A DNA stretch of 62,531 nucleotides, the filler included, from Sluysia triapertura (taxonomy: Eukaryota), in assembly GCA_046118255.1 (NCBI GenBank). It is 4 parts of 4 records of this genome, joined end to end, with 100 filler letters (N's around TTAATTAATTAA, not from the genome) between each part and the next. Parts side by side here need not be neighbours in the genome. Positions count along the whole stretch, not along the records: positions 17,619 to 32,771 come from JBJNIA010236997.1; 3 more parts are not named here. One strand, given 5' to 3'. The stretch's first letter is position 1. Each line of letters opens with the position of its first letter. Below, in pieces: positions 17,694 to 28,372 of the stretch. The notes under the pieces were generated by a model that was given only the letters and a program-made list of their open reading frames with translations, was not told where the DNA came from and searched no databases. A program made the translations under genes and the position numbers.

Positions 17694-19187
17694 TCACTCA
17701 TGTTTTGTTATGTGTTTATTATGAGATATTACATTTAACTGATGCCCATTTGGTATGGTTATGTTTTGGAATATTAATTTTAAATGATAACAATTTAGTT
17801 TAGTAATAGATCTTTTAATTTTAAAATTAAAATTGATATAAATTTTAATTGTATTGTTAAATATAAATTCGTTGAGAATATTATGTTTCATAATTTTGTT
17901 TAGGTTTATTATGAACAAATTAAGCAAATCGATTTACAAGAAATTAACAACTACAATAATTTTTATATTTTTTGTTATAACACAAAGTTTAAGTTTCGTT
18001 GTTATTGTTATATCCTCGCGTACGTTATTCAGCCTTGGCCAAGAATTATCATCTAAAATAAAATGAAAATTTAAATTATGGATAAAATGAAAAAAAGAAA
18101 TAATTACGTTATTAGGATACTGCAAAACTTGTAAATTATGTTTTGATCTTTAAACCATAAATAGTCTGTATAATAAAATTTATTAGTATATACCCTGATA
18201 CTATTTCGGGATGAATAAATTTGCAGTAGAGTTAAAAAAATTTACTGTAATACGTTTGTGTAAATTTCGCATACGTTCTATAAAAATATTATTCAATTCG
18301 CAAGTTGTAATATCATTGCCGTCTCTACTAATACTCTTACAAATACTCATACAAACGTTTGTATAATCATCACTAATAACATTATCATAATCAGTAATTT
18401 TATTCAATGTATCGTGTTTAGACCTTTTATAGACAATATTTATTTTATAATTCGAAACATTTGATAATTTGAGAATATCTATGAAAATTCTGTCAATTAA
18501 TGTAAATATAAAATCAAAAATCATGTTATCATTAACGAGATAGATGAGGCAACTCATCGCATGTTGAGCAGAATCACTATGAACATTTATTTCATCTTTC
18601 ATATCTAACACAAAATAGGATGAGTGATCACAAAACATCATTATATAAAGCTGTAAAATAGCTGAATAAAACTGTAACATGTAATAGAACTTTATCTTGT
18701 GCTACATATTTTAGATTGTCTTTACTATAAACAGTCATGAAAATATTAAATGAAATGGCGATACTCTCATTAATATGACCGTAGCCTTTCAGAAAATCAA
18801 TTAAGAGAATCATAGATTCATTTGACTCAATGTAGTATTACTTTTTATATCTTTAAACATATGCTCTATAAGTAAATGAGAATCAAAAAAATGTAATATA
18901 TTTAATTAAAACGTTCGCTATTAGCAACTGAACTCGTTCTTTAGAAAATAATAAACTCTATAAATGTGAAGCAAACTTTTTATCCATTCTAAAACTGGAA
19001 CTATGTATCTTGAATTGCGTACGCGAATTGAATAATTTCGTTCTATGACATATTTGAATTTTACATATAAATTACTAATTATTAAACTAAATAATTTGCT
19101 GCTGTTCTCAGTTGGTGCTAGAGAAGACTTCATTAGGATATCAGATATTTGACAAACAGAATCATATTTTACTCGAAACAATTTCAT
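17694..19187 (-). pseudogene. Cargo ORF A: intronless, disrupted gene of unknown function
   Basis: A chain of co-oriented ORF fragments (18921-19187, 18628-18813, 18201-18680, 17934-18125, 17694-17927) lies downstream of the LTR-start motif at 20217. No known domain. Confidence 0.5.
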
Positions 19188-19799
19188 TTTCTAGTTGACT
19201 TAATGATACAATTATTTTTATTTCAGCATTAAGTTCAAAAATGCACTTTGAGTCTACATACATTTTTTGTGCTTTAAAACTTTTATTACTTTTGTAAATT
19301 TTATGCAAAAATTAAATTGTGATTTTTGGACTGACAATTTTCTGTACCAATTTTTCTGATTAGTTATCCAACCAGATATTTATGACTGTTACAATTTATT
19401 TTCTCTCTGGTTGGATGGTAAAATAGTTTGTAGATAAATGAAAGATAAACCACCATTCACGCTGACATTCATTTGTACATAGTGATTAACTATGTGAGTA
19501 TGAATGGTGGTAATTTGCTGATTAATGTAAACTAAAAATTTTATAATTTGAAAAATTAAAAATAATAAAAGTGTTATTATTATTATTAACCCAAAGACAT
19601 AAAACTCTGTATTTCTTTGTATAACATGATCTTTCTTTCTTTTTATTTATTAATTCTTAACATATTTTGAATTGAAATAAAAGAAAAAATGATAGAATTG
19701 AATGTAATAACAAGAATAATAAGATTAACAATGTTATAGTTATTGTTGTTATTAAATTGCATAAACTTTTGGATTCTTTACAAACTGAACACGAACTTG

Positions 19800-20217
19800 T
19801 TTTTTAATGCTTTAAATTTCTGAACATATTTAAACTAGAAATCTTTAAGTAAAGATTGGTTTAAGTAGATGTGAAAGAGATAATTTATAGTCCACTCTTG
19901 GTATATTCTAAAGTTGATTTACGGTGTTGCAATGTGAATGTTCTCTTTCTCTTTTTAAGTGGTATAGTCTTTTGTGGTGTTAATGATTATGTGATAACAC
20001 ATGATGTATTTAAAATGTAATTGATTCGAAGGTGGTTGAAGTTTGATTGTTATGAATATGAAGTAAAATATTTTTGATGGATCTGATGATGTAAATTGAA
20101 GGTATAGGGTGTAAATGTGGTTTGTGGGTATGACTTAATTTTGGCAGATGAACTGTTTTATGAGTGTAGTAAAGATAAATATGTGGATATTAATAATATT
20201 AAAGGTTGACCACCACA
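19800..20217 (-). mobile_element. LTR-like head of unit A
   Basis: The minus strand starts TGTGGTGGTCAACC at 20217 and continues as a strongly C/A-skewed tract. Confidence 0.6.
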
Positions 20218-25480: not shown

Positions 25481-26150
25481 TGTAGTGGCCAACACCCATA
25501 ATTCAAAAGTCACTAAAACATTACAACAACTAGCTCACAAAAAACATAACATCTAAATCAATCACATTTCACATTATAGAATTACATTAACCAAATCATC
25601 ACAAACAACATTCGACATTTATAATATTTCAACAACATACATATACCAACAACTCGTCCAAGACACTCAATCATTCACCTCACATTATACTTTGATAATT
25701 AATGCCGAATAATCCACAACATTCACTCAATAGTCATTCCCTCAAACCAAACCACAACCATAACACATAATATGTAAATCACAAATTCATTAACACCATT
25801 TAACAACATTAACAAGTACCTGAAACATAGAAAACATTTTCGTTACAACCTATAATCAATTATACTAATGCAAACCCATTTCATCTACACATAATCATTA
25901 TCAATATTTTTCAACAACATCACACATACGCTAAGATTTATTTTGTAATTGTCTTTCAAATTAAATAAACTACAACCTTTCAATAAGCATTTCAAACCAT
26001 TATATTCAACACGTAAGTCTTGTTTTCGACTTCAAACCTTAAATAAATCTTAAGAATTTATTCTAACATTCTTCATTTCACTTACAATTCAAATCATTTA
26101 ATTTCAAGAATTCTGAGCAAATTTAATACAACTTTAAAGAATTCATTGTC
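25481..26150 (+). mobile_element. LTR-like head of unit C
   Basis: TGTAGTGGCCAACACCCATAATT followed by about 600 nt of G-poor C/A-rich sequence. Confidence 0.6.
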
Positions 26151-26688
26151 TTACTATGAAGCAACAACGATAACTGAGGCGTTGTATACCTCGTTACCGT
26201 TGCTCCTTCACAACATGTCATTTGTTTTTATTCTTCTTTTTAATATGTAGAAAATTAAGTAAGTTTTATCAAAAGAAGGATTTATGCGATTTATTTCCAT
26301 TTAAAAATAATAATAATAACAATATTATTATTATCATCAATTATTAAAATGTTTTATAAATATAATTAAAATCAATTCAATTCTAAACAATTTTGTCTCT
26401 ATTGGTTGTTGTCGCCATCATCAATATTGACGCTATATGCACTATTTTATTAACATGTCAATATTGATGATGGTAAATCATCAAAAATTAATTTTAGATT
26501 TTGATATTACATATTATCATTTTTGACTTCGTGATTTGATAACCAATAGTAAAACACACACTACTAATTAACTATAGTTGTGACGAGAAAATATTATTAT
26601 CACTTTTATTATTGTAAATGTTTATTTTAAGCTGGTTAAAAAATTCTTGACGAGTATCAAAAATAGACTACAAAATAACTGAAGCACA

Positions 26689-28372
26689 ATGGACTTTAAA
26701 AGTTTTTCTGAAATACGAGATGAGCATGAAATGATCCAAAAAAGACAATTACGAGATGGATTAATCCTATTTTTTTAGAATCAGACGATTATTCAAATTT
26801 TAGTAATGCACAATATTGGAATCTACCTGAGTCAGATTTTAAATTTTCTAAAACGCGATCCGGTTATCTTAATGATACAATCACATTTTGTGAAATACCA
26901 GCTCTAAAAATAAATGTTTTTATTCCTAGATCACAACTACGAGATTTCAAACTAAAATTAGCATGTAAGTTCGTTGATGATAGTTATGTAGAATTTGATG
27001 TAAAAATGATGAGGTACCTCAATCTTGTAGAAATACAAAGTCTTCAAATAAACATGTATTTTCCAATAATGTATTAGTTTATTCGAGATGTCTAGACGAT
27101 GGTTTTAATCGAAATGAAACTGCCGATATAGATGACGATTATGATTTAAAAAACAAGAATCAGTGTGATTTTGGATATTATTATCAGAAACGGACTAATT
27201 CTTTACTAAACCTATTCCAGTCAATCATTAGTAGTTATAATATGATCCAATCAATTCACCACCATTACGTATACATGGTTACAAGCCGAAATGAAGTTAT
27301 AATGATAAACAAAATAGTACACAAAGTTCTTAATGTACTGCAATGTCTACAGAATAATCACAGAATGCTGCAAGTTGCAACTTATCAGTCAATCGTTACC
27401 AACATGTTAAATGAACAATTTCATAATTCAATCTTACTAATTAATAGTCAAATCCAGGATGATAGTACAATTTTAGTTCTATTACAAGTAGATACTAGGA
27501 TGTTGAAAGACATGATCAATCTATGTTTAAACATTATTACGTGTATATTTAATAAAGAGGCGATTTCTGCTTACTTAGACGACTTAAAAATCGTATGTTA
27601 TCCTATATATGTAACCTTAACTAAGTAACTACACAATATCAATACTTAGATACATTATCAAAATACTAGTTGTTAATAAGTGAGTTTATTGATGAAGAAG
27701 ATTTTGAGTTCATCGTTAAGAATGTTTCAAACATTAAAACAATTTATGTGAGTTTTAGTTTCATACATTCATTAATCTTTATTTTAATTTATAGAATTAT
27801 CAAACGTATTGGTGAAGCCCAACAGAGTGTGGCTTGCGACAAAAGACCAGAAGAAGAAGAAGGCAAAACTTTTAATTTAAATCTAACATGTTTAGTTGTC
27901 AAATATATATCAATTAATGTCTTGTTAAATCTCGAGATTTATATCTTAAAAAGATTTTTATTCTTATCAAATAAGGTCCTAATGAACATATGTGTATTAA
28001 AGATAATAAGTTTAGATGCAGATAAACTTTGTAAAACTATTGATTCAATTTTTTTGTAAACACGTTAAGACTTATAGCTTATTAAAAGATGTTGAAAATG
28101 AGATTACACGATACTCGGCAAACAAAGAAAGCACATCGATAGATTTTATTAGAGGTTTAATCAACCTAACTCTAAAGTCTAGCATTAAAGTTACTTACTG
28201 TATTCCAAGTTCACACTTGAAATTTCTTCAATATAAATGTCAAAAGAGGAACATTATATTGATAACAAAGCTTAAAAATATAATGACGCTACGAAATCAT
28301 AAGATTAAAAACATATCCAACCATCATAAAAACTTAAAACTACTAAACAAATACGTACCTGTTATTGAGTGA
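26689..28372 (+). pseudogene. Cargo ORF C: intronless, disrupted gene of about 550 codons, unknown function
   Basis: ATG at 26689 (MDFKSFSEIRDEHEMIQKRQ...), then fragments 27242-27628, 27670-28059 and 28016-28372 separated by stops and frameshifts. Confidence 0.55.

Follow-up and report, generated by a model that had tools for sequence, protein, structure and literature searches.

Repeated LTR-headed units with decayed coding sequences in Sluysia triapertura, read as putative long LTRs of Gypsy-type subfamilies

In this study, three neighbouring units with a common head of long terminal repeat (LTR) type, here called A, B and C, were analysed in a 62,531-nt stretch of DNA from Sluysia triapertura (assembly GCA_046118255.1), which consists of 4 record parts of an AT-rich animal genome joined end to end and is referred to as the window. 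All three lie within the piece at positions 17619-32771 (JBJNIA010236997.1), and each is a repeated subfamily of its own, the cargo varying by subfamily and not by copy. The open reading frames (ORFs) behind their leaders are broken remnants of real coding sequence, these copies being dead, and length variants among relatives keep the frame, while unit B closes with LTR-type ends between identical 5-bp flanks. We read A, B and C as long LTRs of several old Gypsy-type subfamilies, each with one gene inside the LTR, a reading that we hold to be about evenly poised between right and wrong.

Repeated units, their ends and their heads

The repetition of the units was read from the contigs of one public run, the single run listed as matching the window (no RNA run is among those listed), of which 18208 were placed on 11.9 kb, other repeats included. 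Summed contig depth in this set is not a copy number and shows only that many related contigs exist; unique contigs of the run have a depth of 8-14 and unique flanks one of about 10. Summed depth reached 1800-3300 over A, 480-950 over ORF B and 510-1180 over ORF C. In unit A, 22 of the 26 bins at 17775-20244 exceeded 1000 (range 596-7684), with 229 in the bin below; depth is reduced in the linker ahead of the ATG (147-388) and at 18155-18249. The head of C is far deeper than its cargo, about 35000 vs 500-1200. The preliminary description had proposed a different cargo gene in each copy; since the contigs repeat each leader and its ORF together, the cargo is not copy-specific and that proposal is given up.

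The clearest ends are those of unit B (21110..23743, - strand, 2634 bp), which runs from TGTGG to ATCCAAA between identical 5-mers CACAT at 23744-23748 and 21105-21109. A unique contig spans the flank of its head, family cover continues to 21152, and depth is single-copy at 21020; the end at 21110 falls in this 132-nt interval (21020-21152) where family cover stops. The chance of finding the end motif and a perfect 5-mer in the interval is 0.004, before correction for the several end rules tried. An earlier CA-ended terminus with a 4/5 duplication was replaced by the AAA end. Unit B is likely a solo LTR with an ORF inside.

Unit A (17765..20217, - strand, 2453 bp) runs from TGTGG to TTCCAAA, as placed by a drop in depth and the end motif, with an alternative end (...ACA) at 17701. 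In front of its head stands a repeated stub (20218..20500, -; depth 164-624 vs about 10 in unique flanks), which ends in a purine run and CTCAA and resembles the GGGAGG-CTCA junction at 13829 described below; the stub is likely the 3' end of an internal region. Because this front flank is repeated at lower depth and ends like the 13829 junction, unit A is likely a 3' LTR, and its cover by family contigs from head to end, with the front stub at lower depth, was counted in favour of long LTRs. No target duplication was found around A. Unit C (25481..28320, +) has a sharp head, overlain by a unique contig (24312-25506), and is still repeated at 27922 and single-copy at 28355; its far end, which lies between these two points, was not located, and no target duplication was found for it. 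An AATAAA stands 32 nt before the B end and 146 nt before the 17765 end of A; by chance, one accompanies 100 of 951 AACA sites. Neither a second leader nor an inverted arm was found at the ends of A or B. The sequence ACAT follows the 17765 end of A and also precedes the head of B. A joining of B and A into one element was rejected on the grounds that the two are unlike and that depth between them is single-copy at 21020.

The heads at 20217 (-), 23743 (-) and 25481 (+) were confirmed, together with a near-identical one at 13829 (-). The pattern TGTRGTGGY occurs further at 32636 (+), 56711 (+) and 62328 (+), giving 7 matches in the window vs a mean of 0.48 and a maximum of 2 in 100 base shuffles, for a motif that was derived from these same copies; the heads at 13829 and 62328 match at 70% over 147 nt. 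As the preliminary description had stated, the 13829 head follows a polypurine tract (13834-13842) in a real, though decayed, Gypsy element (13829..15640, -), in another contig piece than A, B and C, and it stands behind that element's remnants of RNase H (PF17917, 4e-18) and integrase (PF00665, 6e-7). No gag and no 5' LTR junction were found in the window.

For LTRs of the CsRN1 clade, the end motifs TGTGGYG and MSYYAMA are given in Table 3 of PMC3601003, and TGT...AAA ends are reported in PMC2582038. The 5' motif fits A, B and 13829, with C differing by one transition, the 3' motif is matched at 6 of 7 positions in B, the ends are of TGT...AAA type, and a polypurine tract stands directly upstream of the LTR of the pol-bearing copy. 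The same head at a polypurine junction behind Gypsy pol, together with these end motifs, suggests that the shared head is an LTR 5' end. On the other hand, the CsRN1-clade LTRs in the table rows of PMC3601003 measure 146-381 bp (training-set mean 330), and CsRn1-like elements are described in PMC2582038 with a 4-bp target duplication and LTRs of a few hundred bp, unlike the present units of 2.4-2.6 kb, the 5-bp duplication of B and the ORF inside the unit. The likeness is one of end motifs, and membership of the units in CsRN1 is not shown.

Several further stretches of the window touch on these heads. Behind the 3' LTR head of the pol-bearing Gypsy, from 13829 to about 12200 (-), two stretches free of stops span 172 and 142 codons, accompanied by a 72-bp direct repeat and a 60-bp inverted pair; one patch rich in cysteine resembled a RING finger and gave no Pfam match. 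If these stretches belong to the LTR, they would form a second case of an ORF in an LTR, tied to pol. At 15644-15965 (+), a variant head TGTAGTGTTCAAC with a C/A-rich tract and a TTA block adjoins the truncated front of the Gypsy pol in opposite orientation. The fifth head, at 56711-58450 (+), has a short leader (ATG at offset 281) without the twin hairpin and another unrelated broken ORF, for which Pfam gave no match. Two more G-poor tracts lie at 48700-49700 (+), one of them behind the head-like TTGTGGCCAATC near 49436.

Leaders and decayed cargo genes

Much of the layout that had been claimed for the units was borne out. The order common to A, B and C is head, G-poor C/A-rich tract, AAAAGAA-type block, AAT tract, hairpin and ATG. 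In the 200 nt behind the three heads the G/C skew is -0.80 to -0.82, where -0.45 is already reached by just 2.7% of 2458 background values. The block has the form AAAAGAA..AT in B and C, A having a longer variant of it, an AAT-rich block follows in all three, and the ATG stands 1030 (A), 1251 (B) and 1208 nt (C) from the head, in keeping with the 1.0-1.25 kb first proposed. In A the module lies at 19360..19645 (-), with the AAAAGAAAGAAAGAT block, the AAT block, hairpin 1 (19449-19511) and hairpin 2 (19366-19416), the stems being perfect. In B it lies at 22720..23145 (-), with the AAAAGAAAAGAT block, the AAT block (22984-23096), hairpin 1 (core 22828-22867) and a weaker hairpin 2 with CCAAT boxes, and in C at 26270..26526 (+), with the AAAAGAAGGAT block, the AAT block, hairpin 1 (26414-26473) and hairpin 2 (about 26465-26526).

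In each unit, hairpin 1 folds more stably than every one of 200 shuffles (z -3.8 in A, -2.6 in B and -5.0 in C), and the second hairpin is strong in A and C (z -3.8 in C) and weak in B (z -1.9). In a 90-nt fold scan, windows at z<=-3 numbered 3 of 84 in A, 0 of 84 in B and 2 of 84 in C, vs 8 of 248 in the background. The hairpin core CAYCAY...RTGRTG is present once in each leader and nowhere else in the window, and 1 shuffle in 200 attains such a count of three. In C this core has a paired change, with the pairing anchored by hand. CCAAT boxes were found in the leaders of B and C. Rfam matches to the hairpins stayed below the gathering score (MIR172, 40.7 of 70 bits; mir-279, 29.2 of 56). At the DNA level the hairpins may be palindromes of a promoter; alternatively, they may function as RNA.

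The leaders, which the preliminary description expected to align above chance, barely do so. Only one cross match was returned by blastn between leaders, a 34-nt AT-rich match of C to A (E 0.004). Local alignment scores were reached by 0, 0 and 2 of 60 block shuffles, with a large contribution from the AAT tract, and after removal of the AAT tracts 22, 2 and 4 of 100 shuffles reached the A-B, A-C and B-C scores. Kinship of the leaders is better supported by contigs in which A-leader sequence passes into B-leader sequence in register (joints 19588/19603 to 23124), at matching offsets, than by these scores, and the leaders are distant relatives at best.

The ATGs had been described as opening ORFs of 0.9-1.7 kb; this did not hold, the best single frames containing 14 (A), 18 (B) and 35 (C) stops. 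The longest stop-free pieces nevertheless measure 166, 94 and 209 codons, lengths that 0, 11 and 0 of 1000 shuffles attain, and in A and C the first codon position is G-rich, like that of a host gene in the window. The long open pieces and the G-rich first codon position indicate that the remnants were once coding. ORF A (17937..19187, -) is an orphan remnant with stops and frame shifts, which includes the 166-codon piece and whose relatives diverge just behind the ATG region (contig loose end 19168). ORF B (21564..22492, -) ends in an Unkempt-like CCCH finger (about 21636-21740), and ORF C (26689..28056, +), with the 209-codon piece, possibly reaches 28372.

Among the variant rows examined, which are the best-supported ones listed, all 6 multi-base length variants that lie in ORFs A and C preserve the reading frame, compared with 3 of the 9 that lie outside (Fisher 0.017). 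The count covers rows with fully known fill, rows of unknown fill and 10 single-base rows being left out; two of these 10 fall in the ORF remnants, both at frame switches of the present copy.

As to the identity of the cargo, the best domain match was obtained for B, just under the cut-off: the finger matches Pfam PF25427 (E 7.3e-7; 29.5 bits, cut-off 31.1) and PDB 5ELH (E 0.029), and judging from this likeness the B cargo is probably of host origin. In C, a weak hint of Misato segment II (PF10644, E 6.5e-4, under the cut-off) at about 26787-26960 was not accepted, as an implausible family scored E 0.0016 in the same search, and it gained no support from searches of PDB sequences, longer proteins, ESM Atlas and Foldseek. 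The three proteins are unlike each other (no similarity at E<=1) and no gag/pol domain was found by Pfam in 9 read-through frames, as had been claimed. The read-through of A (272-867 aa) gave no match in the homology search and none in Pfam or PDB, and the 209-aa piece of C had no homologue among 1.84 billion representatives. No parent protein was found when the 115-aa piece of C and the B finger were compared with longer proteins. In ESM Atlas there was no usable match for A and a best value of 0.86 for C, a level also reached by shuffles; PDB sequences gave 0 matches for A and C and E 1.3 for the front of B, and a metagenome scan returned 38 pattern matches with 0 confirmed. Single-sequence structure predictions were poor (predicted local distance difference test, pLDDT, 53 and 36), and Foldseek with the one model tried, that of pLDDT 53, returned nothing under E 0.26.

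Long LTRs with an inner gene and the alternatives

The preliminary description had left two options, long LTRs carrying exchangeable accessory genes or a non-autonomous family that shuttles genes. The LTR nature of the head is supported, and the option of a long LTR with an internal gene gains weight from the ends and flanks of B and from the frame-keeping variants; no ongoing exchange, no paired LTRs and no link to Burro were seen.

A number of observations weigh against long LTRs with an inner gene. A target duplication was found in only one of the three units and measures 5 bp, where CsRn1-like elements have 4 bp and LTRs of some hundreds of bp, and several end rules were tried before the AAA rule. 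The same rule gave an equally neat end for the head at 56711, which was rejected for enclosing a kinesin exon, and chance can thus produce such end matches; when 5-mers are drawn at random, 20-32% of them agree with some candidate end within 5 kb. TGTGGYG alone has 19 occurrences in the window, 5 of them heads. Leader homology is marginal when real AT-rich sequence of the window is the standard (modules 40/1273, 7/671 and 67/671), and the similarity of the A and B 3' ends, at 6/830 for 150 nt, falls to 173/1402 for 100 nt. Single-base changes are synonymous in 6 of 20 cases (p 0.38), as is to be expected of a comparison between a dead copy and its family. The evidence for host origin of the cargo is weak, both the CCCH (E 7.3e-7) and the Misato (E 6.5e-4) match lying under their cut-offs. 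In one contig the end of ORF B meets leader-like sequence (23543 to 21568), which fits a cargo between two repeats, and neither the window nor the short family contigs showed an element in which two such LTRs enclose gag-pol. Finally, the single run used may itself be the source of the window and is then not independent of it.

The joint contig leads to the first alternative, in which the units are non-autonomous LTR chimeras, with the leader as an LTR or its remnant, the ORF as an mRNA captured between two LTRs, and the downstream LTR lost or diverged. LTR-mediated retrocopying is an established mechanism (PMC5131818), and besides the joint that returns from the ORF B end to leader-like sequence, the host-type CCCH finger, the great depth of head C relative to its cargo and 18 contigs that leave A right behind hairpin 1, at a low agreement of 0.57, would fit such a history. 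However, no second leader follows any ORF in the window, no convincing primer-binding site was found between leader and ATG, and the ORF region of B is followed at once by an LTR-type end with matching flanks, and we consider the chimeras unlikely. Still more improbable is an origin as the 5' parts of giant Burro-like elements, in which an accessory ORF stands between a 1-kb LTR and gag: such an upstream ORF is described for a Burro-like element in PMC6431247 and the end of C was not located, but beyond B and C depth is that of a single copy, neither gag nor a Burro-type domain was found in or behind the units, and the internal-like stub of A stands in front of the unit and not behind it.

Capture by a DNA transposon (Ginger-like, foldback or Pack-TIR), with the leader as a long arm, agrees with the sharp heads and unique flanks of B and C and with the TGTNR start of Ginger ends given in PMC2836005, which TGTGG and TGTAG both fit. 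We give it little credence, as the ends of A and B share at most 4 of 5 inverted bases vs Ginger arms of 40-270 bp, terminal inverted repeats of 40 bp or more as in Ginger or foldback elements being absent there, no two heads face each other in the piece 17619-32771, and the same head stands at the polypurine junction of a retrotransposon. A host gene family without self-mobility, in which an LTR-derived promoter spread by segmental duplication and gained different coding pieces, would account for the promoter-like CCAAT boxes and palindromes, for the frame kept among relatives and for A and C having no target duplications. It is equally hard to credit in view of repetition that begins sharply at the TGT head with unique flanks (B, C) and stops near the B end motif, and of the thousands of related contigs.

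Coding sequence inside a terminal repeat has precedents in sag of mouse mammary tumour virus and in lentiviral nef, which lie in U3; each of these retroviral lineages has a single fixed gene whose start lies close to the LTR edge or ahead of it, unlike the ATG 1.0-1.25 kb inside the present units. By analogy, the units would work like a retroviral U3 ORF or like the extra ORF of a particular family; membership in Burro or Ginger is, as for CsRN1, not shown. Burro/GYPSM1 of planarians, compared by the description in PMC6431247 alone, shares the Gypsy context, multi-kb terminal repeats implied by sizes and host-type accessory domains, but its extras are placed there in the internal polyprotein or an upstream ORF, and no Burro-type domain (gag, BIR, MATH, ankyrin, BCL2, env) was found by Pfam in the 9 read-through frames of A, B and C. 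LTR-mediated retrocopies and maize Bs1, as treated in PMC5131818, likewise join a host-type coding piece to an LTR and can amplify, with template switching as the likely route; the cargo lies between LTR parts in those cases and apparently within one LTR-like unit here, where no parent gene was found. Related bdelloid LTR families each carry a different extra ORF, which according to PMC5408684 is an ORF3 between pol and the 3' LTR and not behind an LTR head.

If A, B and C are long LTRs with an inner gene, a coding piece, in B probably host-derived, would have entered the LTR by template switching during reverse transcription and then been copied to both LTRs. The first kilobase, with its C/A tract, AAT block, two palindromes and, in B and C, CCAAT boxes, would likely serve as the promoter of the cargo. 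The gene would be kept by selection during the spread of the subfamily, likely as an accessory factor acting on element RNA or host defence, and LTR-LTR recombination would leave solo LTRs such as B, followed by decay. Over long periods the cargo would differ from one subfamily to the next, and not among the copies of a subfamily. A bolder and rather doubtful proposal is that of a Gypsy lineage with the LTR as a gene slot, in which a conserved promoter and twin-hairpin module precedes an exchangeable host-derived gene, a solo LTR forms a self-contained promoter-gene-polyA cassette, and recombination scatters hundreds of chimeric genes.

LTR retrotransposons are known to take up genes between their LTRs. 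If a gene were captured within the LTR itself, each element would hold it twice, and a solo LTR could preserve it, together with its own promoter, after the element was gone; orphan and chimeric genes could arise by this route in animal genomes rich in repeats. As the copies A, B and C are dead, any present function would reside with relatives outside the window. We found no account in the literature of host-type genes inside flatworm Gypsy LTRs, although Grohme 2018, supplements and Repbase, which were outside the search, may bear on this.

Further features of the window

The four pieces are separated by spacers at 17519-17618, 32772-32871 and 45436-45535, each of 100 nt N around TTAATTAATTAA; the pieces are unlinked, thus adjacency across a spacer is no evidence, and the head at 32636 is cut by one. 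Just before that head, overlapping stop-free frames of 265 and 170 codons lie on opposite strands at 31578-32375 (-) and 31681-32193 (+), the former with no Pfam match.

A very deep repeat at 17620-17703 (bin depth about 250000), whose other copies diverge at a purine run and TCA-TGT junction, is likely the polypurine tract and LTR start of another family. A second one at 29133-29715 (about 144000) has a 141-nt inverted match (81%) to 2520-2660. Host exons of ubiquitin hydrolase, mRNA capping enzyme, bestrophin and two kinesin pieces were found at 33609-34618 (-), 38753-39382 (+), 45148-45435 (+), 49807-50109 (+) and 60384-60563 (-).

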